From NCBI GenBank assembly GCA_965219905.1, contig CBDCOS010000008.1, positions 640,183-704,182 of the forward strand: a DNA stretch of 64,000 nucleotides, given 5' to 3'. Shown here piece by piece: positions 956-55,385 of the stretch. The notes below the pieces were generated by a model, which worked only from the letters and a program-made list of their open reading frames with translations, ran no database searches and was not told the DNA's origin. The DNA is from an uncultured Candidatus Binatia bacterium. Its GTDB lineage: Bacteria; Desulfobacterota; Binatia; UBA9968; JAJDTQ01. Both the position numbers and the translations under genes were made by a program. Each line of letters begins with the position of its first letter. The first letter of the stretch is position 1.

Positions 956-966
956 TCCGTGTCCTG

Positions 967-2475: not shown

Positions 2476-2514
2476 GGCTCGCTCCTTGAACTGACTTGGT
2501 CCTCGCGCTTGCGG

Positions 2515-3051
2515 CTAGAAAGTTCGTTCGATGCTCTTCCTGAGGGTCTGCAACTGCGTGCGTACGCTGCCGTCGTAGACCTTGCCGCCGACCTCGACGA
2601 CGATGCCGCCGATAATGCCCGGATCCACTTCTTCGGTCAGGACGGCGGTCTTGCCGGTCATTTCACCCACCACCGCGGCAAGGCTGTTGCGCCGGTCGTC
2701 GGCAAGGGACCGGGACACGGTGACCCTGACGTTCACACGGCCCGCCGACTCGTCCAGCAGCCGGTGGTAATGACGCGCGATGGAGGACAGCCCGTCGAGA
2801 CGGTCGCGGGTCACCAGCAGCGAGAGGAAATGGGTGGTCAGGTCCGAGAGGCCCATGCGTGCGGCCACCTCCGCCACAATGTCCTTGCGGCGGTCCTGGC
2901 CGAAGGCGGGGTTTCCCAGCACCTTCCTGAGGTCGGGATCCTCGTACAGCTTGAGAAAACCGTCCACCTCGGCGCCGACGGCCTCCTCCCGGCCGGCGGC
3001 GAGCTCAAAAATGGCCCTTGCGTAGCGGCGGCTGAGCTTTCCTTCAATCAT
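2515..3051 (-). CDS. atpH: ATP synthase F1 delta subunit (OSCP)
   Basis: 178 aa; MIEGKLSRRYARAIFELA N-terminus typical of delta. Position between atpF and atpA. Confidence 0.85.
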   Translation of the reverse strand: MIEGKLSRRYARAIFELAAGREEAVGAEVDGFLKLYEDPDLRKVLGNPAFGQDRRKDIVAEVAARMGLSDLTTHFLSLLVTRDRLDGLSSIARHYHRLLDESAGRVNVRVTVSRSLADDRRNSLAAVVGEMTGKTAVLTEEVDPGIIGGIVVEVGGKVYDGSVRTQLQTLRKSIERTF

Positions 3052-3106
3052 CGGTCATGAACCCGGTCTTACCCCGCTTGCCTGGCGGTTTGCGCGCGGC
3101 AAGTCG

Positions 3107-3649
3107 TCAGAGGTCCCGCAACTGTCGCGAGAAGTCGTCGACCATGCGATCCTGGTCGGCGGCCGCCATGTGCTGCTGGATTGCCCGCTCCGCGGCGGCC
3201 TCCGCCAGCAGCGCCATTTCCCCACGGATCTGCTGCCGCGCCATCTTGACTTCCTGCTCGGCCAGGAAGTCGGCGTCGGCCTTCAGCTTGGCTGCCGACT
3301 CTTCCGCCTCGGCCACGATACGCGCCCGTTCGCGCTCGCCCTCGGCTCTCAGCCCTTCCCGGATCCGCTCGCATTCATCATCGAGAACATTCAGCAATTC
3401 CCGGTACTTCCGGACGTACCCCTCGGCTTCGCCCTTGGCCTGCTGGGCCGTAGCCACGGCCTCGACGAGTCCCTGGCGGCGCTGCTTCAGGTGCTCACTT
3501 ACGAGCGGGAGGCCGTAGCGCTTGACCAGCCAGGCGAAGATCAGGAAGTTGATCAGCGGGAAGAGCAGCTCCGTGATGGAGGGGGTGTGGGCTCCGTCCG
3601 CGGAAGCGGCCCAGGCCGTGGACACGAGTATGTCGGTCAAGAGGGTCAT
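3107..3649 (-). CDS. atpF: ATP synthase Fo subunit b
   Basis: 180 aa with an N-terminal TM helix followed by a long charged Ala/Glu/Arg-rich helix. Has a 4-bp overlap with the upstream b' gene. Confidence 0.8.
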   Translation of the reverse strand: MTLLTDILVSTAWAASADGAHTPSITELLFPLINFLIFAWLVKRYGLPLVSEHLKQRRQGLVEAVATAQQAKGEAEGYVRKYRELLNVLDDECERIREGLRAEGERERARIVAEAEESAAKLKADADFLAEQEVKMARQQIRGEMALLAEAAAERAIQQHMAAADQDRMVDDFSRQLRDL

Positions 3650-4074
3650 GTCAGCTTCCGGCCCAGCACCTTCTCGGCCATCTCCTGAGCCAGCGCTTCG
3701 GCGTTGGCCGAGGCCACTCGGCGCGCCGCCTCCAGCTCGCTCCGGACCTCTTCCCGTATCTCCTGAATCTTCTGGGTGGCGGCGTCGCGGCCCTGGGAGA
3801 GGATGAGGTTGCGGGCCTTGAGCGCCTCTTCCCGGATTTCGCTCTTGATCGCCTCGCCCTCGGCCCGGGCAGTGGCGATGGCGGCGTTGTATTGTGCCTG
3901 CAACTCCTGCCCTTCTTCCGTCAGGGAACGGGCCTCGGCGTGGGAGCCCTCGGTCCTGCGCTCCCGTTCCGCCATCAGACGCCCCACGGGCCCGAACAGC
4001 ACCCGCCGGAGAATGCTCCAGAGGATCAGGAACAGGACGATTTGGACCACCAGGGAATAATCTATGCTGATCAT
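3646..4074 (-). CDS. ATP synthase Fo subunit b' (second b-type subunit)
   Basis: 142 aa with one N-terminal TM helix and a charged helical stalk, paralogous to the adjacent b subunit. This b/b' arrangement is as in alphaproteobacteria and cyanobacteria. Confidence 0.75.
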   Translation of the reverse strand: MISIDYSLVVQIVLFLILWSILRRVLFGPVGRLMAERERRTEGSHAEARSLTEEGQELQAQYNAAIATARAEGEAIKSEIREEALKARNLILSQGRDAATQKIQEIREEVRSELEAARRVASANAEALAQEMAEKVLGRKLT

Positions 4075-4369
4075 GCTACGCGTTCGGTGTTGATGACGCC
4101 GGACTCGGAGAGAGCCCCGGTCATGGAAGATTCGGAGATGGCGTGAACCGAGATGCCGTCAGGTCGTTCTATAAACTTCGTCCTTCCCCTTGTTGGCTTC
4201 ATGACGTCAACCGCAGGAACGGCGTGACGTTCCCAATCGGGAAAGCCTCGATAGCCTGCCCAGTAGCTTGTTTTTACGAAGGCGCGGCGCATGTCGCGTC
4301 GCGCCGGATGAGCCGCGGTCGCAGTCTGCGGAAAGGCACGCCTCTAACTGTCAACCAAGGTCAGGCTAT

Positions 4370-4398
4370 AGCATTCGCGCCCTTGCTTGTCAAAGCGA
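4370..4398 (-). promoter_or_regulatory. Candidate sigma70 promoter for the atp operon (-35 TTGACA, 17-bp spacer, -10 TATAGC on the minus strand)
   Basis: Minus strand reads TTGACAagcaagggcgcgaatgcTATAGC (plus-strand coordinates 4398..4370). It is in the parB-atpF' intergenic region, upstream of the atpF' start at 4074. Confidence 0.3.
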
Positions 4399-4431
4399 GT
4401 GCGGAGGCGAGGCGGAAGCCGGCGGCCGCCG

Positions 4432-5295
4432 CTACACGGTGCCCATCATCATGCTCGTTATCCGCTCCAGGTCTTCCTGCGAATAGTACTCGATCTCCAG
4501 CTTGCCCTTGTCGTCGCGGGCCCGATGCGTGAGCCGGACCCGGGTGCCGAGGCGGCGCTGCAACGTTTCGACCAGGTGGGAAAGGTCCGGATCCAGGCGG
4601 TCCTCGGTCCTGGTCCGCCTGGGGGCGTTCAGCCGCTTCACCAGCGCCTCGGTATCCCGGGTGGAGAGGTCCTTCGCCATGACCTCACGCGCGGCGGCGG
4701 CCGTCATCGAACGGTCCTTGAGGCCCAACAGGGCCCGTGCCTGGCCGGCGGGCAACTCGCCACGGGAGACATGTTCCTTGATCGGGTCGGGCAGCGACAA
4801 CAGCCGCAGGGCATTGGCGACCGCGGAACGGCTTCTACCGACCCTTTCGGCCACCTGTTCCTGGGTCAGGTTGAACTGTTCCTGCAGCTCCGCGAAAGCG
4901 GCAGCCTCTTCGATGGGGTTCAGGTCTTCGCGCTGCAGGTTCTCGATCAAGGCCAGCAGAAGCGAGTTCGGGTCGGCGGTTTCGTGAACGATTATAGGGA
5001 CTTCCGAGAGTCCCAACCGCCTCGCCGCGCGCAGGCGCCGCTCGCCCGCGATGAGCTCGTAGCCCCCGGCCGTGGAACGCACGACCAGTGGCTGCAGCAT
5101 GCCGCTGGCCTCGATGGAGCCGGCCAGCTCGTTGATCTTCTCGTCGTCGAAGACCCGCCGGGGCTGGTTCGGATTGGGTGCGATCAACAAAGGATCGACC
5201 ACCGTGGGAGACGCCGCCGAAGGAGCATCCTCCACCACGGGTTCGCTTCCGGGCAGCAGGGCATCGAGACCCCGTCCAAGTCTATTCTTCTGCAT
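4432..5295 (-). CDS. parB: Chromosome partitioning protein ParB (Spo0J)
   Basis: 287 aa. MQKNRLGRGLDALL start, ParB box GERRLRAARRLG, and an HTH region. Confidence 0.9.
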   Translation of the reverse strand: MQKNRLGRGLDALLPGSEPVVEDAPSAASPTVVDPLLIAPNPNQPRRVFDDEKINELAGSIEASGMLQPLVVRSTAGGYELIAGERRLRAARRLGLSEVPIIVHETADPNSLLLALIENLQREDLNPIEEAAAFAELQEQFNLTQEQVAERVGRSRSAVANALRLLSLPDPIKEHVSRGELPAGQARALLGLKDRSMTAAAAREVMAKDLSTRDTEALVKRLNAPRRTRTEDRLDPDLSHLVETLQRRLGTRVRLTHRARDDKGKLEIEYYSQEDLERITSMMMGTV

Positions 5296-6064
5296 GGCTT
5301 CGCTCCTTCCGGCCCATCAGTTCGGTCGCCAGGCTCAGGTAGCTCTGCGCTCCCGTCGAACGGGCGTCGTAGAGCAGCGCGGGCATTCCATGGCTGGGGC
5401 TCTCGCTCAGTCGGACGTTCCGCGGGATGACCGTCTCGAAGACGGCGTCCGGAAAATGATCGCGAACATCCTTGGCGACCTGGGCCGAGAGATTGCTCCG
5501 GCTATCGTACATGCAAAGGACCACGCCCTCGAGCCGAAGGTGCTGGTTGTACGACGTCCGGACGCGTTTCATGGTGTCCAGGACCGCGGTGAGGCCCTCG
5601 AGGGCGTAATACTCGCACTGAAGGGGGACCAGCAACGAATCGGCAGCCGCCAGGGCGTTGAGCGTCAGAAGACCCAGGGACGGCGGACAATCCAGCAGGA
5701 TGTAGTCGAATCTGTATCGGACGGTCTCCAATGCCTGCCTCAACCGGCCGATGCGGTCCTCCATGTCGATCATCTGGATCTCCGCGCTCACCAGGTCGCG
5801 GTTCGCGGGCAACAGGAACAGCGACGGCATCTCCGTGGCGCAGAGCGCTTCGGTGACGAAACAGTTCTCCAGCATCACGTCGTAGATGCTCTTGTTGAGA
5901 GACCTGGGCTCGACCCCGAAGCCGGTGGTGCTGTTGCCCTGAGGGTCCATGTCCACGATCAGCGTCTTTTTCGCGGCGATGGCCAGGGACGCGGCGAGAT
6001 TCACGGCCGTGGTGGTCTTTCCGACTCCGCCCTTCTGATTGGCTATGGCGATGATGGTTCCCAA
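5282..6064 (-). CDS. parA: Chromosome partitioning ATPase ParA (Soj)
   Basis: 260 aa. Deviant Walker A KGGVGKTT in MGTIIAIANQKGGVGKTTTAVNLAASLA. 14-bp overlap with parB. Confidence 0.9.
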   Translation of the reverse strand: MGTIIAIANQKGGVGKTTTAVNLAASLAIAAKKTLIVDMDPQGNSTTGFGVEPRSLNKSIYDVMLENCFVTEALCATEMPSLFLLPANRDLVSAEIQMIDMEDRIGRLRQALETVRYRFDYILLDCPPSLGLLTLNALAAADSLLVPLQCEYYALEGLTAVLDTMKRVRTSYNQHLRLEGVVLCMYDSRSNLSAQVAKDVRDHFPDAVFETVIPRNVRLSESPSHGMPALLYDARSTGAQSYLSLATELMGRKERSHAEE

Positions 6065-6182
6065 AAGATTTTATATTTCGGTAGGTTATGGCTTATCCGG
6101 CAACTTGATTTGTAGCACGACAGGGGCGGAAAAGGAAGTCCGGTGTTTCACGTGAAACACCGGCACACGCAAGGGTCGGGGG

Positions 6183-6848
6183 CTACGACTTCCGGAACAC
6201 GAGCACGGTTCTGCGCTCGCCGCCGAAGGGCAACTCGAAACTCACGTTTCTCTCTGGGCGGAGGGCGTATTCCGGTAGTTTCTCTCGGACTTGATCCTGG
6301 ACGGCGGCGCCCTTCGGCCCTTGCATCAAGACGCACAGCCCCCCTCGAGCCAGGAGGCTTCCGCTGACCCTGAGGAACCCGTGAATGTCCGAGAAGCCAC
6401 GGGTGACGGTTTCCTCAATGGCCGGCAACCCTTCGCCCGCCAGGTCCTCGATACGGCTCTCGATCACATGCAGGCCGGTCAGCTTGAGCTCGCGCGCGAC
6501 GTGCCTCAGGAAGTTCGCCCGTTTTCGGCGCGGTTCCACCAGGTAGACAGGTTTCCCGGGAAGCGCGAGCTTGATGGGGATACCGGGGAAACCGGCTCCA
6601 CTGCCGATGTCCAGGAGGCTGCCGTGACGGCTCACCAACGGAACGACGGAAAGCGAATCGATGAAGTGGCGCCGTACGACCAGGTCTTCGTCGTGGATGG
6701 CCGTGAGGTTCAGTCGCGCACCCCAGAACGAAAGCAGGGACAAGTAGTCCCGGAAGGCTTTCGTTTGATGCGGGGAAAGCTCGACATCGAAGCAAACGGC
6801 GCCGGCGGTCAGAAGTCGCTCGCTCCTGTCTGAATCCGTGGCGGCCAC
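6183..6848 (-). CDS. rsmG: 16S rRNA (guanine527-N7)-methyltransferase RsmG (GidB)
   Basis: 221 aa. SAM-binding motif DIGSGAGFPGIPIK. Classical position between parA and mnmG. Confidence 0.85.
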   Translation of the reverse strand: MAATDSDRSERLLTAGAVCFDVELSPHQTKAFRDYLSLLSFWGARLNLTAIHDEDLVVRRHFIDSLSVVPLVSRHGSLLDIGSGAGFPGIPIKLALPGKPVYLVEPRRKRANFLRHVARELKLTGLHVIESRIEDLAGEGLPAIEETVTRGFSDIHGFLRVSGSLLARGGLCVLMQGPKGAAVQDQVREKLPEYALRPERNVSFELPFGGERRTVLVFRKS

Positions 6849-6862
6849 GCGAGGAGACGGGA

Positions 6863-8761
6863 TCAGCCGGCCTTCATCTTGTAGAGATAAAGGGAAAGCA
6901 CGGAAATGGCCGCGGGGGTCACGCCGGAGATTCGGTAGGCCTGTCCCAATGAACGGGGCCGCACGTGGGAGAGCTTCTCCCTGATCTCACGCGAGAGCCC
7001 GTTGATTTGCCCGTAGTCCAGGTCCTCCGGGAGGGTCACGTTCTCCATCTTCTGAAACCGCTTGAGACCCTGGGTCTGGCGGTCGACGTAACCACTGTAC
7101 TTTATTGAAACTTCCGCTTGGAGCGCCACGTCCGACGGGACCGTTGCCAGCTCCGGACAGAACGCGGCCAGGCTCCCGAAAGCGATCTCCGGCCGGCGGA
7201 GCAACTGTGCCAACGACGTAATGTTCCGTACAGGCGCCGTTTCCATGGTGCGGAGCTGCTCCTGCACCGGCTGTGACGGCTGGATCCGGGTGTTCTCGAG
7301 CTTGTGGGTCAACTCGGTAATCTGCTCCTGTTTCCGGGCGGTCCGGGCGTAGGCCTCCGGGGTGGCGAGCCCGATACGGTGCCCCATCTCGGTCAGACGC
7401 AGGTCCGCGTTGTCCTCCCGGAGCAGCAGACGGTATTCGGCCCGGGAAGTGAACATCCGGTAGGGCTCGCCGTCGGTTCCCTTGGTGACCAGGTCGTCGA
7501 TCAGAACGCCGATGTACGCCTGGTCGCGGGAAAGGACCAGCGGCTCGTCCCCCTTGAGGCTGAGACACGCGTTGATGGCGGCCATCAGCCCCTGGCTGGC
7601 GGCCTCCTCGTACCCGGTGGTCCCGTTGATCTGACCGGCCAGATAGAGGTTGCCGACGGATTTCGTCTCCAGGGAAGGCTTGAGCTGGGTCGGCTCCACG
7701 TAGTCGTACTCGATGGCATAGCCGGGCCTCATGATCTCGGCCTCCTCCAGCCCTTCGATGCTGTGGACCAGGTCCACCTGGACATCGAGAGGGAGGCTCG
7801 TGGAGATTCCGTTCGGGTAGACCTCCACCGTGTCATACCCCTCGGGCTCCAGGAAGATCTGATGCCGCTGCTTGTCCGCGAAACGCACCACCTTGTCCTC
7901 GATGGACGGGCAGTAACGCGGTCCGCGGCTCTTGATGACACCGGAATACATGGGCGATCGGTGGATGGCCTCGCGGATGATCTCGTGCGTCCTGGGGTTC
8001 GTATAGGTGATGTGGCAGGGGATCTGCTTCTGCTCGATCCTCTCCGTGCCGAAGGAGAACGGTATCGGGGTTTCGTCGCCGTCTTGAACCGAAAGTCTTG
8101 AATAATCAATGGTGTGGGCGTTCAAACGCGGGCAGGTCCCGGTCTTGAGCCGGCCCAGCCGGAGCCCGAGCGCGCTCAACGAGGCGCTCAGTCCCTGGGC
8201 AGCGAAATCGCCGGCCCGGCCGGCCGAGTAGTTGCGGTCGCCCACGTGGATGACGCCCTGAAGAAAGGTCCCGGTCGTCAGTATGGTCTTCCTGGCCTCG
8301 AATACTTCCCCGATCTGCGACTCGACTCCCAAGACCCTTCCGTCACGGCACAGCAGCGCCTCGACGCTGGCCTGCTTGAGGGTCAGATTCTCGCAGTTCT
8401 CCACCACCCGTTTCATCCGCCGCCGGTACAGGGCCTTGTCCGCCTGAGCCCGGGAGGCCCTGACGGCCGGCCCCTTCTTCGTGTTCAGCATGCGGAACTG
8501 GATGCCGGTCTCGTCGATGGCGCGGGCCATCTCACCGCCGAGGGCGTCGATTTCCTTGACGAGATGCCCTTTCCCGATGCCGCCGATGGCTGGATTGCAC
8601 GACATCTGGCCGATGTGGTCGAGGTTCAACGTCAACATCAACGTGTCGAAACCCATGCGCGCGGCCGCCAGGGCGGCTTCGATGCCCGCGTGTCCGGCGC
8701 CGACGACGATGACGTCGTAGATTCTGCCGTTCCCCTTGTCCGACTGTTTCACGTGAAACAT
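6863..8761 (-). CDS. mnmG: tRNA uridine 5-carboxymethylaminomethyl modification enzyme MnmG (GidA)
   Basis: 632 aa. FAD motif YDVIVVGAGHAGIEAALAAARMG and conserved MnmG blocks (SCNPAIGGIGKGHLVKEIDALGG, GPRYCPSIEDKVVRF). Confidence 0.95.
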   Translation of the reverse strand: MFHVKQSDKGNGRIYDVIVVGAGHAGIEAALAAARMGFDTLMLTLNLDHIGQMSCNPAIGGIGKGHLVKEIDALGGEMARAIDETGIQFRMLNTKKGPAVRASRAQADKALYRRRMKRVVENCENLTLKQASVEALLCRDGRVLGVESQIGEVFEARKTILTTGTFLQGVIHVGDRNYSAGRAGDFAAQGLSASLSALGLRLGRLKTGTCPRLNAHTIDYSRLSVQDGDETPIPFSFGTERIEQKQIPCHITYTNPRTHEIIREAIHRSPMYSGVIKSRGPRYCPSIEDKVVRFADKQRHQIFLEPEGYDTVEVYPNGISTSLPLDVQVDLVHSIEGLEEAEIMRPGYAIEYDYVEPTQLKPSLETKSVGNLYLAGQINGTTGYEEAASQGLMAAINACLSLKGDEPLVLSRDQAYIGVLIDDLVTKGTDGEPYRMFTSRAEYRLLLREDNADLRLTEMGHRIGLATPEAYARTARKQEQITELTHKLENTRIQPSQPVQEQLRTMETAPVRNITSLAQLLRRPEIAFGSLAAFCPELATVPSDVALQAEVSIKYSGYVDRQTQGLKRFQKMENVTLPEDLDYGQINGLSREIREKLSHVRPRSLGQAYRISGVTPAAISVLSLYLYKMKAG

Positions 8762-8853
8762 CCTTCGCTGACTTGCGGATCAGAATTCCAATTCTGCCAA
8801 ATTCCCGAACAAACTTCCACGCGACCGAGCAACCCCGGCCACGGCCCGGAGCA

Positions 8854-10221
8854 CTACTTCCCGATGCAGAACTGAGAGAAAATACGGTCGAGGATGTCGT
8901 CGTTGGTCACCGTGCCGATGATCTCCTCCAGGCTGTCGCGGGCTTCCTGCAGGTCCACCGCAACGATATCCGGCGGCAAACCCCGGTCTATCGCCCTGCA
9001 CACCTCCACCAGGTGTGTCCGGGCCCGATCCAGGGCGGCCTTGTGGCGAACGTTGGTCACGACGATCTCCGGCTCCTCCGCGGAGTCGAGAAAACAGTCG
9101 CGCAAGGCGGCCTTCAGTCCGTCCAGCCCCTGGCTCGTCAACGCCGACACCTCGACCTGCTGAAGTTCCGGCAAGTAGTCCGAGACGGCCGATGGGTCGA
9201 TCTTCCGGGGCAAATCGGACTTGTTGATGACCACGAGCCCTTGCCTGGTCCGGACCTTCTCCATCACCGTCGCGTCTTCCGGGGTCAGCGGCGAAGACCC
9301 GTCGAGAACGAGCATGCATCCCTGGCTCTCCTCGAGCCGCTTCAGGGTCACGTCGATGCCGATCTGCTCCACATCCTGGGTGCCGTCCCTGATGCCCGCG
9401 GTGTCCCACAGGACCACGGGCAGGCCCTTGAGATTGACGGTTTCCTCGATGAAGTCCCGTGTCGTTCCGGGCGTCGCCGTGACGATGGCCCGCTCCACGC
9501 CCAGCAATGCATTCATCAGGCTCGACTTGCCGACATTGGGCCGTCCGACGATGCATACCCGGACGCCCTCGCGGATCAACCGTCCCCACGCGTAACTGTC
9601 AACGAGCGCCGAGGTCCTTTCCACCACTCCGGCGACCTTGCGCCCCAGCTCTTCGCGCTGGAGCAGCTCGATCTCTTCCTCCGGGAAGTCGATGGCCGCC
9701 TCCACCTGCACCAGCGTATCCACGAGCTGTTCGCGCAGGTCCTTTACCTCCCGCGACAGCCCGCCCTCCATCTGGCCCAACGCGACGCCGGCGGCCTTTT
9801 GCGTACGCGACCGGATGAGATCCAGCACGGCCTCGGCCTGGGATAAATCCAATCGACCGTTCAAATAAGCCCTCCTGGTGAACTCTCCCGGCTCCGCATG
9901 CCGCGCACCGTGCTCCAGCGCCAGCCCGAGCACCTGCCGCACCACGTAGGGCCCGCCGTGGCAATGGATTTCCACGGTATCCTCGCCGGTATAGCTTCCG
10001 GGCTCCTGGAGATACACAAACATCACCTCGTCCACCACGGCCCCATTAACCGGATCCCGGACCCGCCCGTGGTACAACCGGTGCGACTCCCACTCGGCAC
10101 CCTTGCGGGCGAGGAGCTCGGTCCCGATGCGTCTGGCATCCGGACCGCTCAGGCGCACCACCGCGATCCCTCCCTCTCCGGGAGGCGTCGCCACCGCTGC
10201 TATGGTATCGGCCCGGTACAT
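8854..10221 (-). CDS. mnmE: tRNA modification GTPase MnmE (TrmE)
   Basis: 455 aa. MYRADTIAAVATPPGEGGIAVVRLSG start, G-domain GRPNVGKSSLMNALL and DTAGIR, and the C-terminal CIGK motif (ends FCIGK). Confidence 0.95.
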   Translation of the reverse strand: MYRADTIAAVATPPGEGGIAVVRLSGPDARRIGTELLARKGAEWESHRLYHGRVRDPVNGAVVDEVMFVYLQEPGSYTGEDTVEIHCHGGPYVVRQVLGLALEHGARHAEPGEFTRRAYLNGRLDLSQAEAVLDLIRSRTQKAAGVALGQMEGGLSREVKDLREQLVDTLVQVEAAIDFPEEEIELLQREELGRKVAGVVERTSALVDSYAWGRLIREGVRVCIVGRPNVGKSSLMNALLGVERAIVTATPGTTRDFIEETVNLKGLPVVLWDTAGIRDGTQDVEQIGIDVTLKRLEESQGCMLVLDGSSPLTPEDATVMEKVRTRQGLVVINKSDLPRKIDPSAVSDYLPELQQVEVSALTSQGLDGLKAALRDCFLDSAEEPEIVVTNVRHKAALDRARTHLVEVCRAIDRGLPPDIVAVDLQEARDSLEEIIGTVTNDDILDRIFSQFCIGK

Positions 10222-21076: not shown

Positions 21077-22474
21077 CTACGCTGCGAGCCGCGCAACACA
21101 CCTGCGAGCCGCCTCGGCGATCGCAGCCGGATCCACGGTCGTCAGCATGCTGTCCCGCACGACCGGTCGTCCTTCCACCAGCAGATCGCGCACCGTGAAC
21201 GGGCCGCAAAGCACGAGAGCGGCCACCGGGTCCCAGGCGCCGGCGGCGCCCAGGCCGGAAACGTCCCAGATCGCAAGGTCGGCGCGCTTGCCCGGCTCGA
21301 TGGTTCCGAGATCGCCGGCGCGTCCGAGGACGGCCGCCCCGCCCAGGGTCGCCATCTGAAGGGCTTCGCGGGCGCTCATGGCGGCGGCGCCGTAACGGAC
21401 CCGCTGCAGCATCATGGCCTGCCGGGCTTCGGGCAGGAGGCTTCCCGAGTCGTTGCTGGCCGATCCGTCGACGCCCAGGCCGACGGCGACCCCGGCGTCG
21501 CGCATGGCGCGGACCGGCGCGATGCCCGACCCCAACCGGCAGTTGGACGACGGGCAGTGCGCGACGCCGGTCCCGGTCCGGGCGAAGAGGGCGATCTCGG
21601 CCGGGTCAAGCTGAACGCAGTGCGCGTGCCACACGTGCTCACCGACCCAGCCCAGCGACTCGGCATACTCGCCGGGCCGGCAGCCAAGATTATCGAGCGC
21701 CCAGGCGACGTCCTCGGTATTCTCGGCGAGGTGAGTGTGCAGACGCACTCCCTTGTCGGCCGCCAGCGCCGCGGCATCGCGCATCAGTTCCCGGGAGACG
21801 GAAAAGGGCGAGCAGGGAGCGATGCCGACGCGGACCATGGCGCCCTCGGACGGATCGTGAAAGGCGTCGATCACGCGGATACAGTCATCGAGGATGTCGG
21901 CCTCGCGCTCGGTCAGGCTGTCCGGCGGCAGGCCGCCGGAGCTTTCGCCGATGCTCATGGCGCCGCGGGTAGGGTGGAAGCGCAATCCGACGGAGCCCGC
22001 GGCCGCGATGGTGTCCTCCAGCCGGACGCCGTCGGGATAGAAATAGAGGTGGTCCGAGCTCATGCCGCAGCCGGACAGGGCCAGTTCCGCCAGCCCGAGC
22101 TGCGCCGAGACGAACATGTCCTCGGGCCGCATGCGCGCCCACACCGGATAGAGCGACCTGAGCCAGCCGAACAGCGACGCGTCCTGACAGGCCGGCACGG
22201 CCCGCGTCAGGGTCTGGAAGAGATGGTGATGGGTATTGACGAGCGCCGGCGTCACCACGCAGCCGCGGGCATCGATCACCTCCCAAGCGGCAGGGTCCTC
22301 CGGACCGCCGGCGCCCACGCTCTCGATGCGGCCGTCCACCGCAAGGATGTCCGCCCTCCCGAGTTCGCTTCGGTCGGCGTCCATCGTGACGACGATGTCG
22401 GCGTTGCGGATCCAGTGTTTACGGCCTGCCAATGGAGTTCTCCTGTTCAGCGACGGTCCGCATCGCCACATCAC
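21077..22474 (-). CDS. Metal-dependent amidohydrolase / nucleobase deaminase family (8-oxoguanine deaminase / SsnA / chlorohydrolase-like)
   Basis: 465 aa with the HHHLFQTLTRA metal-binding motif and the amidohydrolase_1 fold pattern. Confidence 0.8.
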   Translation of the reverse strand: MMWRCGPSLNRRTPLAGRKHWIRNADIVVTMDADRSELGRADILAVDGRIESVGAGGPEDPAAWEVIDARGCVVTPALVNTHHHLFQTLTRAVPACQDASLFGWLRSLYPVWARMRPEDMFVSAQLGLAELALSGCGMSSDHLYFYPDGVRLEDTIAAAGSVGLRFHPTRGAMSIGESSGGLPPDSLTEREADILDDCIRVIDAFHDPSEGAMVRVGIAPCSPFSVSRELMRDAAALAADKGVRLHTHLAENTEDVAWALDNLGCRPGEYAESLGWVGEHVWHAHCVQLDPAEIALFARTGTGVAHCPSSNCRLGSGIAPVRAMRDAGVAVGLGVDGSASNDSGSLLPEARQAMMLQRVRYGAAAMSAREALQMATLGGAAVLGRAGDLGTIEPGKRADLAIWDVSGLGAAGAWDPVAALVLCGPFTVRDLLVEGRPVVRDSMLTTVDPAAIAEAARRCVARLAA

Positions 22475-22500
22475 CCGAATGACCCTTTGGCCGCACGGGG

Positions 22501-22899
22501 TCAGCCCGTCCGCTCAACGGCGAGGAGGGTATATGCACGGTGACCCAGCCAGACCGCGACGAGACACAATGCGACCGACAGGGCGATGTTGCCGAGAGCC
22601 TGGGGCCATTGGCCGGCCCGCAGGAGGTCCAACGTCTGCAGGCTGAAGGCCGAGAAGGTCGTGTAGCCTCCACACACGCCCACCATGAGGAACGCGCGCG
22701 CCTCCGGTCCCGGCAATCCAAAGCGGTCCGGAAAGGAATCCATCGACGCCAGGACCCCGATGAGGAACGACCCCGAGACGTTCACGGCAATCGTGCCCCA
22801 TGGGAACGCCTGCCCGAACGCTCCGGCGACCAGGTTGTTGCACCCGTAGCGTGCTACGCCCCCGATGGCGCTACCGAGCGCAATCCACAAATAGATCAT
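22501..22899 (-). CDS. crcB: Fluoride ion channel CrcB/FluC
   Basis: 132 aa. MIYLWIALGSAIGGVARYGCNN ... GTIAVNVSGSFLIGVL is the classic CrcB pattern. Confidence 0.85.
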   Translation of the reverse strand: MIYLWIALGSAIGGVARYGCNNLVAGAFGQAFPWGTIAVNVSGSFLIGVLASMDSFPDRFGLPGPEARAFLMVGVCGGYTTFSAFSLQTLDLLRAGQWPQALGNIALSVALCLVAVWLGHRAYTLLAVERTG

Positions 22900-25100
22900 G
22901 TCGTGGAATCTGTACCGTCACGACCTGAAAGCACCACCAGGGCATCGAGGGCGACACCGCCCCGGCGTCGCAGCACAAAGGGATTGACGTCGATGGACTC
23001 GAGCCGGTCGCCCAGGTCACGGGCGAGCCGCGACACCGCCATCAACGCCTTGACTACCGCGCTCCGGTCCAGCGCCGGCGCCCCGCGATAGCCGTCGATC
23101 AACCGGGCGGCCCCGGTGCGCGCGATCAATGCCTCGGCCGCAGTCTCATCGAGGGTCGGGGCGGCGAAGGCAACGTCACGATAAAGCTCCAGCGCCACCC
23201 CGCCCGATCCGAACATCACCACGGGGCCCATCTCCGGATCGCGCGAGGCGCCGACCACCAGCTCCAGCCCCCCGGCTACCTGCTCGGCCACCAGCACGCC
23301 GTCCACGGTGACTCCCGTGGCCTTGCGCGCGACGTTGCGCAGGATGGCGCCGTAGCCTTGGCGCACGGCACCGGCGTTACCGTTGTTCAACAAGACGCCG
23401 CCGGCGTCCGACTTGTGGGTCAGCTCGGCACCCGCGGCCTTCAGCACCACCGGGAATCCGACGGCGCGGGCAATCCGCACCGCCTCGGCCGCGCTGCCGG
23501 CCAGCCGCTCCCTGGGCGTCCGCAGCCCGTAGGCCCGAAGCAGCGCCTTGGACTCGATCTCCGACAGCGGCGACGGCCCCGGGCCGTCGGCGGTCCTCGC
23601 CAACAGCCTCCGGACCGCCGGCGGCGGCGCCAACCGCCCGCCTCGCTTCGTGTCCGCCTTCCTCGACAACCGCTCCGCGTAGGAGATCACCGAGCGCACC
23701 GTGCGCAGCGACTTGTCCGCTTCCTGCATGAAGGCGACGTTCCGAAGGCCGTCGCGCAGGTCGCGGGCATAGTCGTTCAGACCGTGCGAGATCATGGTGA
23801 CGAAGGCGATGGGTTTCCTCGCCCGGGCTGCCAGCTCGTTGACCGCCCGCATGTTGGTTTCCTTGTTCCCGCCCTCCGGCGCCCTCAGCAGCTCCTCCTG
23901 CAACAGCAACGTGTCGACCCCGGGATCGTCCAGCATGGTCTCGACGCACTGCACGTAGGTCTCGTGGCTGCTCAGGCCGGCAAATCCGGAATCCAGCGGA
24001 TTGCCGATGACCGTGCCCACGCCGAGCAGCTTCTCCAGGCGCTTGCGGGTCTTGCGGGCGAGGGGCGGAAAGGACAGGCCGTTGGCTTCCGCCTGGTCCA
24101 ACAGCACGCCGCGCAGGCCGCCGGAGAAGGTCATGGCGCCCAATCCTTCGCCCTTGGGCAGCCGGGCGTGCAGCAGGTACTCCGCCATCTCCACCACGTC
24201 GTCGAGGGTGTTGACGCGAACCGCGCCGTAGTCGCCGGCAATGGCGTCGAAGGCGGCGATGGATCCCGCCAGCCCTCCCGTGTGGGCCAGCGCGGCCGCC
24301 CGGCCGTTGTCCGAGGTGCCGAGCTTGACCACGATCACCGGCTTGCCCGCCTTTTTCGCGGTGGCGCAGGCGGCCAGGAACCGGTCCGGCTCGCGCACCG
24401 CTTCCAGGTAGGACACGATCACCCGGGTCTGCGGATCGGCCGCGAAATACTCGATGTAGTCCGCGGTCTTGAGCCCGGCCTCGTTCCCGCTGGAGACGAT
24501 GTAGCCCACGTCCATGCCGCGCTCTTCGAGGGTGCGCTTGAGCGCCATCACCAGCCCGCCGGACTGCCCGACGACGGCAACGGGGCCGGGCTCGGTGCGC
24601 TGCGGCCGGTTGTCGCTCATGGTGACGAACCTGGCGCCGCCGTTGAAGTTGCCGATACAGTTAGGGCCGGAGACGGCGATTCCCAGTTCCGCGATGGCGG
24701 CGGCGAGGGCCTCACCTCGCGCAATGGCGGCGGGATCGGGCGATTCGCCGAAACCCGCGGAGACCACGGTGGCGCTGCGCGCCCCGGCGGCCGCCCCTTC
24801 GCGCAGGGTCGCCTCCACGTAGGGCGCGGGCACGAACACGACCAGGTGGTCGGGCGGCTCGGGCAACTCCGCGTAGCTCCGGTAGCACCGGGTCCCCCAC
24901 ACCTCCTCGCGTCTCGGGTTGAGCGGATAGACCGGGCCGCCGTAGCCGTAGCGGGCGAGGTTGCGTGCGCAGCGCTGGGGCCAGTTCCCCGGCCTCTCGG
25001 TGGCGCCGACGATGACGGCGTTGTGCGGGTTCAGCAGCGCCTCCACGTCAGAACGGGGGTTGGATTCGGGTCGTGATGCTCGGGTTCCTCGGGAGCTCAT
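22896..25100 (-). CDS. Acetyl-CoA synthetase (ADP-forming) / NDP-forming acyl-CoA synthetase, fused alpha-beta (CoA-binding + succinyl-CoA-synthetase-like + ATP-grasp)
   Basis: 734 aa. N-terminal CoA-binding NAVIVGATERPGNW...GGPVYPLNPRREEVWG, a central ligase-CoA domain and a C-terminal ATP-grasp. The stop overlaps the crcB start (ATGA). Confidence 0.85.
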   Translation of the reverse strand: MSSRGTRASRPESNPRSDVEALLNPHNAVIVGATERPGNWPQRCARNLARYGYGGPVYPLNPRREEVWGTRCYRSYAELPEPPDHLVVFVPAPYVEATLREGAAAGARSATVVSAGFGESPDPAAIARGEALAAAIAELGIAVSGPNCIGNFNGGARFVTMSDNRPQRTEPGPVAVVGQSGGLVMALKRTLEERGMDVGYIVSSGNEAGLKTADYIEYFAADPQTRVIVSYLEAVREPDRFLAACATAKKAGKPVIVVKLGTSDNGRAAALAHTGGLAGSIAAFDAIAGDYGAVRVNTLDDVVEMAEYLLHARLPKGEGLGAMTFSGGLRGVLLDQAEANGLSFPPLARKTRKRLEKLLGVGTVIGNPLDSGFAGLSSHETYVQCVETMLDDPGVDTLLLQEELLRAPEGGNKETNMRAVNELAARARKPIAFVTMISHGLNDYARDLRDGLRNVAFMQEADKSLRTVRSVISYAERLSRKADTKRGGRLAPPPAVRRLLARTADGPGPSPLSEIESKALLRAYGLRTPRERLAGSAAEAVRIARAVGFPVVLKAAGAELTHKSDAGGVLLNNGNAGAVRQGYGAILRNVARKATGVTVDGVLVAEQVAGGLELVVGASRDPEMGPVVMFGSGGVALELYRDVAFAAPTLDETAAEALIARTGAARLIDGYRGAPALDRSAVVKALMAVSRLARDLGDRLESIDVNPFVLRRRGGVALDALVVLSGRDGTDSTT

Positions 25101-25362
25101 GGGGTTCCGTGGGTCGAGTCGGCAGGATGCCCACCACCACCAGGAAGACCGAGAACAAGCTGGCGTGGCTGACGTCCAGAGGCACCGCGTCCGACAGATC
25201 GGGATGGACGTCGTTGTTGGGGTTTGGTCTTTCCCGTCCCGAATGTCTGAGAGCTCACACTATGAGTGCGTCCATACGTCCATGTTGCTGGATTGTCAAC
25301 GGGAGCAGTTGGACGGTCCCTGGAGAAAAAAGGATAGCCCCGACTAAAGAAATGGATTATGA

Positions 25363-25388
25363 TACCGATCAATATAATATGATCGGTA
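25363..25388. promoter_or_regulatory. Inverted repeat TACCGATCA-n8-TGATCGGTA (candidate operator) in an AT-rich islet upstream of the coiled-coil gene
   Basis: 9-bp perfect arms with an 8-bp AT spacer (atataata). Located ~75 bp upstream of the 25462 start, in the locally low-GC stretch 25300-25460. Confidence 0.3.
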
Positions 25389-25461
25389 GAATCGGCCGGG
25401 AGCCGGTTGCCGGGGTTGGGGCCGAGAGCAGTTCCGGGAACCGAGAAGGAGCCGACGAAGA

Positions 25462-25764
25462 GTGAACGCAGAGACGATTAGCATCATCGTATCCGTCATA
25501 GCGGCAAGCGCCACCGTCGGGACTCTCGCAATGACCGGCATCAGGCAGGTGCGCCAAGACATGGACCGGCGTTTCACCGAGCTACGTGAAGACCTGCGTG
25601 AAGTGCGACAGGACGTGAATTCCCTGCGTGAAGAAGTAGGCGCCCTCAAGAGCGATGTGGCCGCTCTCAAGAGCGACGTGGCTATCCTAAAGGGGAACGT
25701 GGCCACTCTCCAGAGTGACGTCGCCATGCTCAAGAGGCGGGATGGGGCCGCAGTCGCGAACTGA
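25462..25764 (+). CDS. Small membrane-anchored coiled-coil protein with four tandem heptad repeats (SDVAALK / SDVAILK / GNVATLQ / SDVAMLK)
   Basis: 100 aa with an N-terminal TM helix (ISIIVSVIAASATVGTLAMTG), then a charged helix and a 7-aa periodic repeat encoded by 21-bp tandem DNA repeats. Confidence 0.5.
   Translation: MNAETISIIVSVIAASATVGTLAMTGIRQVRQDMDRRFTELREDLREVRQDVNSLREEVGALKSDVAALKSDVAILKGNVATLQSDVAMLKRRDGAAVAN
25642..25737 (+). repeat. 4.5 tandem copies of a 21-bp in-frame coding repeat (gccctcaagagcgatgtggcc-like)
   Basis: Direct inspection: units at 25642, 25663, 25684 and 25705, plus a partial unit at 25726. Confidence 0.8.
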
Positions 25765-26490
25765 TGTCCCGGACGGCGATGATGTACCCCTCGGCGTGGT
25801 CGCCGATGATCTCGCAGCGCGTCTCGCCCCAAGTCCAGAAGTATACTGCCATGTAGGCGCAAAGCAGCGCGTCCAGCCGGTCCTCCAGCGACTTGAGGGC
25901 CAAGCCGCGGAGTTCTCCAGGGTTTTCATCAAGCACCGGGAGAGCTCGGGCGACGGCAGCAGGGGAGGGTCCTGGCGGGTCAGGTGGGTGCCGATGGCCG
26001 TCTGAAAGTCGGCCAGACCGGCCTGCCGGACCGCCACGGGGCCTTTCTTGTACTTGATGATGCGCGGCCGCTCGAAGAATGCCACCTGCACCAGATGGGG
26101 GAAGATCTCGAGCTGCCGGCAGCCGGCGCGGCCGGGCAGGAACGGGTTCGACGAGAAACCCCTTCGCCGAAGCTTGCGGCACAACCGGACCGGCCGTTCG
26201 CAACGGACCCGGTTGGCCGGATAGGCTCCAGCGTGATAGCGGCCGAACCGGGACGAGACCATCTTGTCCGCGGGCCGGGACGTCCCCGGCGGGTTCCTGG
26301 CGATGATCGGTGCGTCAATGCCCAGCCAGACATCCTTCCCGCCGCACGTCTCCACCCACTCAAGAATCTCCGTGTCGGTCGTGCGCCGGGCCGAACTCAC
26401 GAGGCGGTAGCCGTCGCCCTCGGACACCAGAAGGGCCAGTCCGGTCGGATTGCGGTTGCCCCATGCCAGGTCGATGCCGATGAAGTTCAT
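25687..26490 (-). CDS. DUF429 domain protein (predicted RNase H-like fold nuclease)
   Basis: Real start is the internal MNFIGIDLAWGNRNPTGLALLVSEGDGYRL, the characteristic DUF429 N-terminus. The 248 codons upstream of it in the track ORF (to 27234) are a shadow frame over plsY. The C-terminal ~26 codons overlap the convergent coiled-coil gene, so the true 3' end is uncertain. Confidence 0.7.
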   Translation of the reverse strand: MNFIGIDLAWGNRNPTGLALLVSEGDGYRLVSSARRTTDTEILEWVETCGGKDVWLGIDAPIIARNPPGTSRPADKMVSSRFGRYHAGAYPANRVRCERPVRLCRKLRRRGFSSNPFLPGRAGCRQLEIFPHLVQVAFFERPRIIKYKKGPVAVRQAGLADFQTAIGTHLTRQDPPLLPSPELSRCLMKTLENSAAWPSSRWRTGWTRCFAPTWQYTSGLGARRAARSSATTPRGTSSPSGTSVRDCGPIPPLEHGDVTLESGHVPL

Positions 26491-26543
26491 GAGCGAGGGA
26501 GGGGAAAGACCACAAGCCCTTTCGGTAGGCCCATTGGGACCGG

Positions 26544-27149
26544 CTATTTCCCGGAACCCGACCGGCGCAGATGGAAGGGCGCCTCCTCTCCCGCCATCAG
26601 CCGGCGGATGTTCTCCCGGTGGCGCACCACCACCAGGGTCCCGACGACCAGGCTCATCCAGACGACTTCCTGGGGATAGGACAGCGCCCACGCCGCCACC
26701 GGGCCGGCCACGCCCGCGGCCATGGAAGCCGGGGAGACCCGGCGGCTCACCAGCATCACCAAGGCGAAGACACCCAGCAGCACAAGAATGCCCAGGGGCA
26801 TGACGCCGACGTAGACCCCGGCGGCGGTGGCCACCCCCTTGCCGCCCTTGAACTTCAGGAAAACCGGGTAGAGGTGCCCCGCGAAGGCGGCCAGACCTCC
26901 CGCGGCCGCCGCGGCCACTCCGAGATCCAGGAGGTGTGCCGCCAACACCGGCAGGAAACCCTTGGCGACGTCGAAAAACAGGGTCAGGAGGCCCTTCTTC
27001 CACCCCAGGGTCCGCGCCACGTTGGTGGCGCCGATGTTGCCGCTGCCGGCGCTGCGCACGTCCACGCCCGCGGACGAGCCCACCAGGAAGCCGCTTGGGA
27101 CGGATCCCAGGAGATAGGACAGTATTGTCAGGACGATAGGTGCCAGCAT
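26544..27149 (-). CDS. plsY: Glycerol-3-phosphate acyltransferase PlsY
   Basis: MLAPIVLTILSYLLGSVPSGFLVG ... GSGNIGATNVAR ... FKGGKGVATAAG are classic PlsY motifs. Confidence 0.9.
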   Translation of the reverse strand: MLAPIVLTILSYLLGSVPSGFLVGSSAGVDVRSAGSGNIGATNVARTLGWKKGLLTLFFDVAKGFLPVLAAHLLDLGVAAAAAGGLAAFAGHLYPVFLKFKGGKGVATAAGVYVGVMPLGILVLLGVFALVMLVSRRVSPASMAAGVAGPVAAWALSYPQEVVWMSLVVGTLVVVRHRENIRRLMAGEEAPFHLRRSGSGK

Positions 27150-27244
27150 GGCGTCGGGCCGGCATCCGGCCGGCATATCCCTTGCTCGGACAAAAAAAGG
27201 GAGGAAGCGCGCGGGCTTCCTCCCTTGGTCCCAAGCCCTCTTCG

Positions 27245-28342: not shown

Positions 28343-28501
28343 GGGCTCCTCCCAATCTCAATGAAATTCAAGAGCTACCTTCTACATGAGGCGCTTTGAA
28401 AATACAACCAACCTTTGCGGCTTCAGGCTCCTGCAAGCAACCACCCGCGACCACGGACCTGGCGAAGCAGCTGAAGGTATTGTGACCCAATTACTAATTT
28501 A

Positions 28502-28535
28502 TAAACAAATTAGTAGAAATTAGTATTTTGAAAGA
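28502..28535. promoter_or_regulatory. Perfect palindrome TACTAATTT-ATAAAC-AAATTAGTA, followed by a third direct copy of AAATTAGTA: candidate repressor operator in the bicupin / M24-peptidase divergent promoter region
   Basis: Direct inspection of the locally AT-rich sequence aattactaatttataaacaaattagtagaaattagtattttg in the intergenic 28343-28614. Confidence 0.4.
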
Positions 28536-28635
28536 GTGCACGGTCCGACACACCCTTGTTTGACACCCCGGATTCAGCTTCCCTATAGTCAGTGCCTTCA
28601 CGGCATCTTCATTCTTGTCCCCAGGGAGACCTTTC

Positions 28636-29823
28636 ATGTGGATCAACGAACCGCGGGCCAAGCGGGTGCTGGCCGCGCATGACCTCGACGCCCTGCTGGC
28701 CGCCACCAACATCCCCAACGTCTTCTACCTGAGCGGCGTGTGGCGGAGGCAGGACATCGCCGCCGTGGTCACCCGGGACGCGGTGACCGCGCCGTGGCTG
28801 GTGATTCCCCGGGCCGAGGTGGATTACATGGTGGACACGGTGCCCCCGGCCGGCGTGGTCACCTACGGCACGTTCTTCCGCGTGATGGAGGACAACGGGC
28901 CGCTGACGCCGCGCGAGCAGCGCATCCGCGAGTTGGGCATCGACCTGGAGCCGGTGACCAACTTCTTCGAGGGGCTCGTCCGCACGCTGGAGAACGCGGG
29001 GCTCGACCGGAGCCGGCTCGGCTACGACGAGCGGGGTCTGGACCCGGCGCTGGCCGAGCGGCTTCGGGAACGGTTCCCGCACCTGGAGCTGGTGCCGGCC
29101 ATGGCCGTGTTCCGTGAGATCCGCATGGTCAAGAGCCCGGCGGAGATCGAGCGCATGACCGAGGCCGTGCGGGTCACCGAGCAGTCCATCTACGAAGCCG
29201 CCCACGAGGCGCGCGAGGGCATGACCGAGGCCGAGATGTGCATGGCTTTCGACCTGGGACAGGTGCGGCGCGGCGCCGAGCCCAACATGAACCACGTGGG
29301 CTTCGGCCGGAGCGCCGCCCTGGGCATGACCAACGTGCCGGACGACACGCTCAAGGTCGGCGACATGATCCGTTTCGACGTGGGATGCCTCTACAAGGGC
29401 TACCTCACCGACATGTCGCGGACCTTTTCGTTCGGTCCTCCGGACGACAAATTCTCCAGATATTACAACGCTGTACTCAAAGGCCAAGATCTGGCCCTGA
29501 GCCTCGTCAAGCCGGGCAAGGTCGCCTCCGAGATCTTCCACGAGACCGTGGCCGAAGTACGCGAGACCGGCATCCCCCACTACGGCCGTCAGCACGTCGG
29601 CCACGGCATCGGCCTGGGCCTGGGCGGCTACGACCGGCCCACCATCGCGCCCAGCGACGACACCCCGCTGGAGGCCGACATGGTGCTGTGCATCGAGACC
29701 CCCTACTACGAAATGGGCTGGGGCAGCGTCCAGGTGGAGGACATGATCGTGGTCACCGAGGACGGCTACCGGCGCCTCACCTCCGTGCCGCGCCACCTCC
29801 AGGTGCTGGAGCCCCGTTCGTGA
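28636..29823 (+). CDS. M24 family metallopeptidase (Xaa-Pro aminopeptidase / creatinase-like)
   Basis: Creatinase_N-like N-terminus and a C-terminal pita-bread fold with the metal ligands (HGIGLGLGGYDRP ... VLCIETPYYEM). Start taken at MWINEPRAKRVLAAHDLDALL. Confidence 0.85.
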   Translation: MWINEPRAKRVLAAHDLDALLAATNIPNVFYLSGVWRRQDIAAVVTRDAVTAPWLVIPRAEVDYMVDTVPPAGVVTYGTFFRVMEDNGPLTPREQRIRELGIDLEPVTNFFEGLVRTLENAGLDRSRLGYDERGLDPALAERLRERFPHLELVPAMAVFREIRMVKSPAEIERMTEAVRVTEQSIYEAAHEAREGMTEAEMCMAFDLGQVRRGAEPNMNHVGFGRSAALGMTNVPDDTLKVGDMIRFDVGCLYKGYLTDMSRTFSFGPPDDKFSRYYNAVLKGQDLALSLVKPGKVASEIFHETVAEVRETGIPHYGRQHVGHGIGLGLGGYDRPTIAPSDDTPLEADMVLCIETPYYEMGWGSVQVEDMIVVTEDGYRRLTSVPRHLQVLEPRS

Positions 29824-53882: not shown

Positions 53883-55108
<1,226 letters not shown>

Positions 55109-55158
55109 GACCCCATCCTCTCAAAGAGTTGGGTCTCCGGTAAACCCGGGGCGGTTCA

Positions 55159-55280: not shown

Positions 55281-55385
55281 CAAAACGCGGGTCCGTACAA
55301 AATGGGCGACATTTCACGGTGTTAGCCGGTGCCCACTTCGCGTCGGCGCGACAGAGTCAGCCTTGCGGCGTCCTTTGACTTTCTC

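Follow-up and report, generated by a model that had tools for sequence, protein, structure and literature searches.

A Small Bitopic Coiled-Coil Protein Gene Preceded by a Probable Sigma-28-Type Promoter in Candidatus Binatia

The DNA stretch described here, referred to as the window, comprises 64,000 nucleotides (nt) of an uncultured Candidatus Binatia bacterium (GenBank assembly GCA_965219905.1, contig CBDCOS010000008.1, positions 640,183 to 704,182 of the forward strand). Between an acyl-CoA synthetase (acs)-like gene and plsY, the window contains a small gene for an uncharacterized small bitopic coiled-coil protein behind a probable alternative-sigma promoter. Comparison with its homologs shows a genuine, conserved gene that is confined to Binatia and whose length varies in modules. 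The explanation that best covers the observations as a whole is that a promoter of the sigma-28 (FliA/SigD/WhiG) type drives the small gene, which the sequence comparisons make probable.

Promoter of the Small Gene

The gene and the two promoter elements assigned to it are as follows.
25345..25352, plus strand: -35 element TAAAGAAA (consensus TAAAGTTT), from the FliA matrix and conservation in 19 family promoters
25364..25371, plus strand: -10 element ACCGATCA (consensus GCCGATAA), 11 nt after the -35 block, from the FliA matrix and conservation
25462..25764, plus strand: small gene, GTG start, 100 amino acids; predicted bitopic membrane protein, one continuous helix

When the upstream regions of the family are aligned on the start codon, two blocks are visible, TAAAG(A/T)(A/T)(A/T) and (A/G)CCGA(T/C)(A/C)(A/G), separated by N11 or N12. 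Both blocks lie 60-93 nt before the start codon in 19 promoters, which belong to two paralog groups: group 1, which includes the window gene, and group 2. The spacing is N11 in 17 of the 19 promoters and N12 in two, and TAAAG is kept in 16 of them, with the variants TAAAA, CAAAA, and TTAAG. The blocks and their spacing are common to both paralog groups, though the spacers and flanks otherwise do not align.

The published FliA/sigma-28 consensus is TAAAGTTT-N11-GCCGATAA (PMC7286023). Similar to the window site, the Escherichia coli class-3 FliA promoters tar (TAAAGTTTCCCCCCTCCTTGCCGATAAC), ycgR (TTAAGTTTTGTTAACTGTGACCGATAAA), and flxA contain the two blocks TAAAG...-N11-.CCGAT.A with identical spacing, and the ycgR promoter has the same ACCGAT at its -10 block. 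A weight matrix was built from 25 E. coli FliA sites determined by chromatin immunoprecipitation sequencing with a FAT score >4 (PMC4183435, Table 2) and used to scan both strands of the window. The top site, TAAAGAAATGGATTATGATACCGATCAA at 25345(+) (25345-25372), scores 23.1 bits and is the best of 127,946 positions, with the runner-up at 11.9 bits; the median E. coli training site scores 23.5 bits. The score is thus typical of true sites, for a matrix that comes from E. coli applied to an uncultured Binatia host with an undescribed sigma-28. In the other loci in which the family was found (numbered with the prefix L), the site upstream of the small gene also ranks first with this matrix, except in L023.

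From the sigma-28 geometry, a sigma-28-type RNA polymerase likely starts transcription near 25379. The presence of a FliA-type sigma factor is plausible in this lineage, because genes for flagellar biosynthesis have been reported for every Binatota order other than Bin18, HRBin30, and UBA1149 (PMC8262859). Two sponge-microbiome papers contain nothing on flagella in Binatota. Taken with moderate confidence, the small gene would belong to the sigma-28 regulon.

Several observations weigh against this assignment. The -10 block of L023 is mutated, and the tandem paralog at 7001 in L016 is without a sigma-28-type motif. Compared with E. coli FliA sites, the -10 block of the window reads CCGATCA rather than CCGATAA, with a C where the consensus has A, and the -35 tail in group 1 is AAA rather than TTT. 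Six-frame translation of the window and of every locus reveals no signature motifs of a sigma factor, flagellin, methyl-accepting chemotaxis protein, FlgM, or CheY, no motility genes appear in a by-eye survey of the window open reading frames (ORFs), and the small protein matches no known flagellar protein family in Pfam and NCBIfam scans. The family is also present in the sponge-associated metagenome-assembled genomes (MAGs) of L006 and L010. The topology and oligomeric state of the small protein are themselves predictions.

A further observation of this kind, a conserved TAYAAT hexamer just downstream of the CCGAT block in group-1 promoters, could be a housekeeping -10 element and leads to the main rival explanation. 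In that explanation, the small gene is transcribed by the housekeeping sigma factor through the hexamer (25373-25378 in the window), and TAAAG and CCGAT are a regulator site or a leader-RNA element. The hexamer is conserved as TATAAT, TACAAT, or TAAAAT just after CCGATCAA in group 1, promoters that lack a -35 element are common in high-GC bacteria, and the TTGCCT-N16-TAAAGT of group 2 is readable as a weak sigma-70 promoter. Group 2, however, is without a conserved TAnnnT at the corresponding place and yet has both sigma-28 blocks at the exact spacing. With the E. coli FliA matrix, the window site scores at the level of the median true site, and nothing else in the 128 kb of scanned strand comes within 11 bits of it. 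A generic sigma-70 scan of 24900-26700 finds no promoter. In addition, the blocks are not palindromic, unlike most regulator sites, and the leader has neither an RNA structure nor an Rfam match, as described below. A housekeeping promoter is therefore the less favored assignment and is considered unlikely.

A second match to the FliA matrix, AGAAGATCTTGTTGTCTTGACCGATGAA, is observed on the plus strand of four loci (L002 7085, L007 5945, L009 4427, and L020 3852) with scores of 15-16.5 bits. This match is conserved antisense inside a phytochelatin-synthase-like gene downstream of the small gene and is probably kept by coding constraint. Many intragenic FliA sites are present in E. coli.

Intergenic Region, Inverted Repeat, and Leader

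The promoter would be held by the divergent intergenic region between the acyl-CoA synthetase-like gene and the small gene, at 25101-25461, which includes the following features.
25363..25388, no strand: perfect inverted repeat TACCGATCA-n8-TGATCGGTA with 9-bp arms, from a sequence search
25379..25461, plus strand: predicted 5' untranslated region (5' UTR) of ~83 nt, with a Shine-Dalgarno GAAGGAG at 25445-25451; start taken from sigma-28 geometry

The first-pass annotation of this DNA, made from the letters alone, described a visible drop in GC content over 25300-25460. The drop is borne out by a windowed profile, in which the 150-nt GC content falls from ~0.66-0.70 to 0.47-0.48 at ~25226-25400. 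Its reading as the compositional anomaly of a low-GC islet does not hold. The GC content of the whole window has a mean of 0.66 with a standard deviation of 0.05, and this dip is ordinary intergenic composition for a 66%-GC genome rather than an acquired islet, because it is one of nine dips with GC <0.52 across the 64 kb and deeper dips are found in other intergenic regions, at 28351-28650 (0.43) and 56951-57275 (0.28). Much of the dip at the small gene is accounted for by the AT-rich promoter sequence.

The same annotation reported the perfect 9-bp inverted repeat before the small ORF. The arms are indeed perfect, but conservation does not extend to the repeat as such: its left arm (25363-25371) coincides with the -10 element of the promoter, and its right arm is found only in this lineage, L020 having just 6 nt of it and the other homologous promoters none. 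Across the window the half-site shows no enrichment, with eight matches at <=1 mismatch versus 7.7 expected. The inverted repeat is thus apparently a lineage feature, in which the conserved part is the -10 element and not the repeat. The predicted position of the right arm is about +1 to +10 of the transcript. If the inverted repeat is functional, it would be an operator that overlaps both the transcription start and the -10 element. The idea that the right arm serves a second sigma-28 promoter, divergent from the first and directed toward the acs-like gene, was considered and rejected, because a TAAA block is lacking at the appropriate distance and the matrix gives no match.

The start position and the Shine-Dalgarno block GAAGGAGCC are conserved in the group-1 homologs. 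Folding of the 5' UTR as a single sequence gives no significant RNA structure (z = -0.21), and an alignment of 10 leader sequences gives a covariation term of 0.09 and a weak 6-pair helix only. An Rfam scan of 24900-26000 at a permissive threshold returns only two chance matches to microRNA families with E >1, and a terminator scan returns only one hairpin, on the minus strand, which is made by the heptad repeats of the small gene and is at the number expected by chance. The weak leader helix pairs a CGGCU-like sequence at 25415-25419 with AGCCG at 25451-25455, right after the Shine-Dalgarno sequence (columns 39-43 and 76-80 of leader alignment A4); this pairing is kept in most group-1 leaders, essentially without covariation.

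Small Gene and Its Protein

The following two segments are distinguished within the small gene.
25477..25539, plus strand: transmembrane (TM) segment, residues 6-26 (ISIIVSVIAASATVGTLAMTG), the most conserved part of the family
25636..25740, plus strand: five heptads, VGALKSD, VAALKSD, VAILKGN, VATLQSD, and VAMLKRR, encoded by diverged 21-bp tandem units

The small ORF is evidently a translated gene under purifying selection, because third-position changes dominate across homologs: over the first 44 codons of 13 homologs, 1333, 538, and 252 differences are found at codon positions 3, 1, and 2, respectively. The start codon is GTG in the window copy and ATG in all other homologs.

The protein is predicted to consist of a 5-residue N-terminal tail, the conserved TM helix, and then an amphipathic helix of ~70 residues without a break. 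An AlphaFold2 model made with the family alignment is one unbroken helix over residues 3-99, with a mean predicted local distance difference test (pLDDT) score of 88. The TM segment contains the small-xxx-small motifs S7xxxS11 and S/G16xxxG20, and S7, I8, I9, S11, G20, and G26 are invariant in the family alignment (A3). The core of the heptads has V at position a and L at position d. The 15 residues that follow the TM segment include four Arg, and no Arg precedes the segment, so that by the positive-inside rule the N terminus is predicted to be outside and the coil to be cytoplasmic (N-out, C-in). The TM motifs and the heptads together suggest parallel self-association.

Comparison of the small protein with Pfam, NCBIfam, PADLOC, and PHROGs gives only subthreshold coiled-coil matches. 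These matches, and an architecture of an N-terminal TM segment followed by a coil in ~100 amino acids, are what would favor a divergent member of a known family, such as an FtsB/DivIC/FtsL-type divisome protein, an Lpp-like periplasmic spacer, or a phage lysis remnant (XhlA, holin-associated, or Rz spanin-like). The PHROG matches, to small TM/coiled-coil families that include "Rz-like spanin" and "hemolysin", reach 20-37 bits, and the NCBIfam match to the major outer membrane lipoprotein reaches 24.4 bits. The similarity to Lpp (PF04728) is in the heptads, which likewise have V at a and L at d (xDVxxLK), and both proteins are short and all-helical. The Lpp match, however, scores 24.1 bits against a Pfam cutoff of 29.1, the small protein contains no Cys and no lipobox, its anchor is an N-terminal TM segment, and its charge distribution predicts a cytoplasmic rather than a periplasmic coil. 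FtsB, DivIC, and FtsL, and the DUF948 family, to which there is also a weak match, share the architecture of a single N-terminal TM segment followed by a coiled coil. PspB and YhcB are other small bitopic coiled-coil proteins with this layout. The divisome matches are again below the curated cutoffs (20 versus 28.9 bits for DivIC, PF04977, and 16 versus 50 bits for FtsL_COG5462), and the Pfam and NCBIfam matches cover the heptad region only. Unlike the essential divisome proteins, the family is found in one phylum only, has paralogs and tandem copies, varies in length, and resides in another genomic context. No phage, holin, or endolysin genes are nearby. Membership in one of these known families is accordingly quite improbable.

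Family Distribution and Length Variation

A homolog search of 5.8 billion clustered proteins returned 28 homologs. The N terminus MNA(E/D)T(I/V)SII(V/I)S… is shared by 25 of these, which range from 57 to 111 amino acids, and further loci were obtained from GTDB representative genomes and JGI metagenomes. Titled records are labeled Candidatus Binatia or carry the older labels Deltaproteobacteria and Thermodesulfobacteriota, with the exception of one MAG labeled Chloroflexota. When all 1.84 billion representative proteins are searched with a profile, 1577 matches are obtained, nearly all to the coil only; once the TM segment is required to match as well, only ~10 clusters at 50% identity remain. 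One distant TM-containing match, P0141, was rejected as a family member, being located among integrase/transposase genes without an upstream FliA-type site; its neighbors carry PSCyt and DUF1501 domains, which indicates a different kind of organism.

Members of the family range from 61 to 171 amino acids through the gain and loss of whole 7- and 11-residue modules. The 11-residue module, MDRRFxExRED, is adjacent to the membrane and present in one to ~nine copies, with the most in L017 (171 amino acids), whereas the 7-residue module, VGxLKEA, is located near the C terminus and present in up to ~nine copies (L010 and L020). The TM segment and a terminal block, (R)EDIREVRRDVNxLREAVGAL, are fixed, and the 61-residue member contains little besides these two parts. 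Close relatives of 107 and 100 amino acids differ by exactly one heptad, and close relatives of 83 and 72 amino acids differ by exactly one 11-mer. In L017, the paralog at 5001-5516, which encodes the 171-residue protein, has ~nine tandem 11-residue units of the form MDQRFSESREY. Two copies of the gene are observed 1.5-2 kb apart in L009 (3483 and 5001) and L016 (5001 and 7001).

In the window, Tandem Repeats Finder detects a 21-bp period at 25641-25736 with 4.6 copies, 70% matches, and a score of 73. The first-pass annotation had described a 100-residue ORF with a TM helix and four heptads written as 21-bp repeats prone to slippage, so that the coil length may vary. The ORF, the TM helix, and the repeats are confirmed, with five heptads in place of four, and the length does vary among relatives by whole units. 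The slippage is another matter: the units are diverged, ~70% identical at the DNA level, with a longest exact in-register run of 11 nt, and the gene, including its copy number, is identical in the window and in the sister contig L001, which is 98.2% identical. A more dynamic alternative, in which the repeats form a rapidly variable contingency-type locus and switch coil length within populations, finds some basis in the differences in unit number among homologs, as both heptad and 11-mer insertions and deletions (indels) are seen. These unit indels, however, are found only between more distant relatives, and an in-frame unit allows no on/off switching; together with the divergence of the units, this makes a contingency locus very improbable. 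The coil length thus appears to be evolutionarily plastic, with no sign of rapid slippage, and the family is a clean example of a coil whose length changes by whole modules.

DUF429 Gene and Sister Contig

Convergent with the small gene is the following gene.
25730..26490, minus strand: DUF429/PDC-S44-like RNase-H-fold gene, frameshifted, from alignment to L001, Pfam, and PADLOC

Sister contig L001, from the Logan assembly of SRR33343646, was found by an exact-sequence look-up of the small protein and shares 98.2% identity with the window over 12.4 kb. One G that L001 has is missing from the window, between 25935 and 25936. The L001 copy of the DUF429 gene is intact and encodes 259 amino acids, with a stop corresponding to window 25730. 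In the window, the N-terminal part continues in a shifted frame to an apparent stop at 25687, and the proper C terminus (…LDALLCAYMAVYFWTWGETRCEIIGDHAEGYIIAVR…) is found in another frame. The ~78-bp overlap of the small ORF with the DUF429 gene that the first-pass annotation reported is therefore an artifact of the 1-nt deletion, which shifts the reading frame past the true stop; measured to that stop, the overlap comes to 35 nt. Because the Pfam DUF429 domain extends only to about residue 230 of 259, the part that overlaps the small ORF is a nondomain tail. The deletion is the sole one inside a gene among the nine indels that distinguish the window from L001 over these 12.4 kb.

The intact L001 allele scores 52.4 bits against Pfam DUF429 (PF04250; cutoff 23), and the window copy scores 34.1 bits. 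With PADLOC, the intact allele matches PDC-S44 end to end at 236.7 bits (residues 5-245 of 259 versus model positions 5-247). DUF429 is an RNase-H-like family and a predicted active nuclease (PMC3985635), in support of the family assignment made at first pass, and PDC-S44 is described as a one-gene candidate (PMC13366656). PDC systems are candidates that are not experimentally validated, and the DUF429 gene is adjacent to plsY, not in a recognizable defense island. By these profile matches, the gene is a candidate single-gene defense gene, disrupted in this assembly.

The divergence between the window and L001 is patchy, with 0-2 differences per 500 nt at 22960-24459 and 24960-25959 and 20-27 differences per 500 nt at 21960-22959 and 26460-26959, a pattern consistent with recombination between strains. 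Special constraint as the cause of the 100% identity over 25024-25840 was ruled out, as several other stretches also have 0-2 differences per 500 nt.

Genomic Neighborhood

The two genes that flank this region in the window are as follows.
22896..25100, minus strand: ADP-forming acyl-CoA synthetase-like gene (CoA_binding_2, Succ_CoA_lig, and ATP-grasp_5), from Pfam; divergent from the small gene
26544..27176, minus strand: plsY, glycerol-3-phosphate acyltransferase (Pfam G3P_acyltransf, 173.9 bits); upstream of the DUF429 gene

The two paralog groups of the family occupy two syntenic positions, as compared by tblastn. Group-1 genes adjoin the acyl-CoA synthetase-like gene, with crcB also on that side, and on the other side are followed by a variable stretch and then by plsY and a cupin gene. 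The variable stretch contains a phytochelatin-synthase-like gene, short-chain dehydrogenases, toxin-antitoxin-like pairs, and sometimes ATP-binding cassette transporter genes. Group-2 genes are always found after dnaX-ybaB-recR and are followed by a convergent cobW. One copy of each group is present in OZ253480.1 (L007 and L017).

Of ~20 family loci, only the window and L001 have the DUF429 gene immediately beside the small gene. The L027 copy is next to plsY and is separated from the small gene by four ORFs, a distance of 1.5 kb. L008, the nearest relative with respect to plsY and the cupin gene, has no DUF429 gene at this locus, and plsY is found directly after the small gene. The plsY and DUF429 genes are on the same strand in the window with a 53-nt gap, and their adjacency in L027 as well makes cotranscription plausible. 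The small gene is vertically inherited, as its two conserved syntenic positions indicate, and is independent of DUF429.

This arrangement bears on the proposal, made at first pass, that the small protein and the DUF429 nuclease form an accessory module. In its full form, this explanation holds that a horizontally acquired low-GC islet encodes the coiled-coil protein together with the nuclease, with the inverted repeat as the operator and the coil length set by slippage. The idea of an accessory nuclease has some basis in the PDC-S44 match. The stretch between the small gene and plsY does vary between genomes, with toxin-antitoxin-like genes in L002 and L027, and the GC content at third codon positions of the small ORF, 0.71, is below the 0.88-0.95 of its neighbors. 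PDC-S44, however, is a single-gene system that does not include the small protein, and the gene is disrupted here. The PADLOC matches of the small protein itself are coiled-coil noise of <=16 bits, and DUF429 is absent from or distant in ~18 other loci. The two conserved positions of the small gene argue for vertical descent, and the GC dip, the unconserved right arm of the inverted repeat, and the artifactual overlap, all described above, likewise count against a module. The explanation is already largely refuted by the neighborhood comparison and is left with only the slightest probability.

Toxin-antitoxin-like pairs (RES/Xre, PIN, HTH_3, and DUF433) and gene remnants recur in the stretch around the small gene (L002 2809-5503, L027 10377-11723, and L004 376-1057). 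The remnants in L027 are 60- and 114-residue fragments of a dehydrogenase and a phytochelatin-synthase-like gene. These observations suggest that the interval from the acs-like gene to plsY is a local hotspot of gene turnover.

Other Features of the Window

The deepest GC dip of the window in 150-nt windows, at 56951-57275, is AT-rich, with TTGACA at 57049, and a lipoprotein-like ORF (MPVFIANRQWVAVLLAVFMAVALSACGGGGS…) that starts at 57220 is found downstream of it. Just before this stretch, two ORFs are recognized by eye, one IS3-type transposase-like on the minus strand (53883-54788) and one P4-type integrase-like on the plus strand (55535-56917), and the pair (53883-56917) may be the edge of a genomic island. 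The by-eye survey also places ATP synthase subunits, parB/parA, mnmG (gidA), and mnmE (trmE) at 98-10221, a set that is often found near the replication origin. The window ORFs surveyed in this way thus include ATP synthase, parAB, mnmG/mnmE, metabolic genes, and the integrase/transposase region.

Discussion

In flagellated bacteria, the sigma-28 regulon corresponds to the late flagellar and chemotaxis class of genes, and the small gene is possibly linked to motility. Tentatively, and with the balance slightly against so specific a role, the protein may take part in the late flagellar or chemotaxis program as a membrane-tethered, self-associating coiled-coil adaptor or spacer, in which the conserved TM helix would dock to a coexpressed membrane complex. 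A still more specific proposal, in which a late flagellar, stator, or chemosensory membrane complex uses the protein as a spacer or adaptor of adjustable length, tuned over evolution by the 7- and 11-residue modules, and in which the two paralogs, by acs and by recR, have distinct partners, is speculative and doubtful.

A precedent for a gene of this kind is provided by flxA of E. coli, a small gene that depends on FliA, lies apart from the flagellar clusters, and has no evident part in motility (PMC4183435). Similar to flxA, the gene described here is a small ORF away from flagellar genes behind a strong FliA-type promoter; no sequence relationship between the two is claimed. In E. coli, flxA is carried by a prophage; the Binatia gene resides on the chromosome in syntenic positions, and its product is membrane-anchored.

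There is little here to surprise a specialist greatly. A false lead is removed, in that the small gene does not form a module with the DUF429 nuclease-like gene. If the promoter assignment is true, it would offer a first point of entry into the sigma-28 regulon of the uncultured phylum Binatia and would add a lineage-specific small membrane protein to that regulon.

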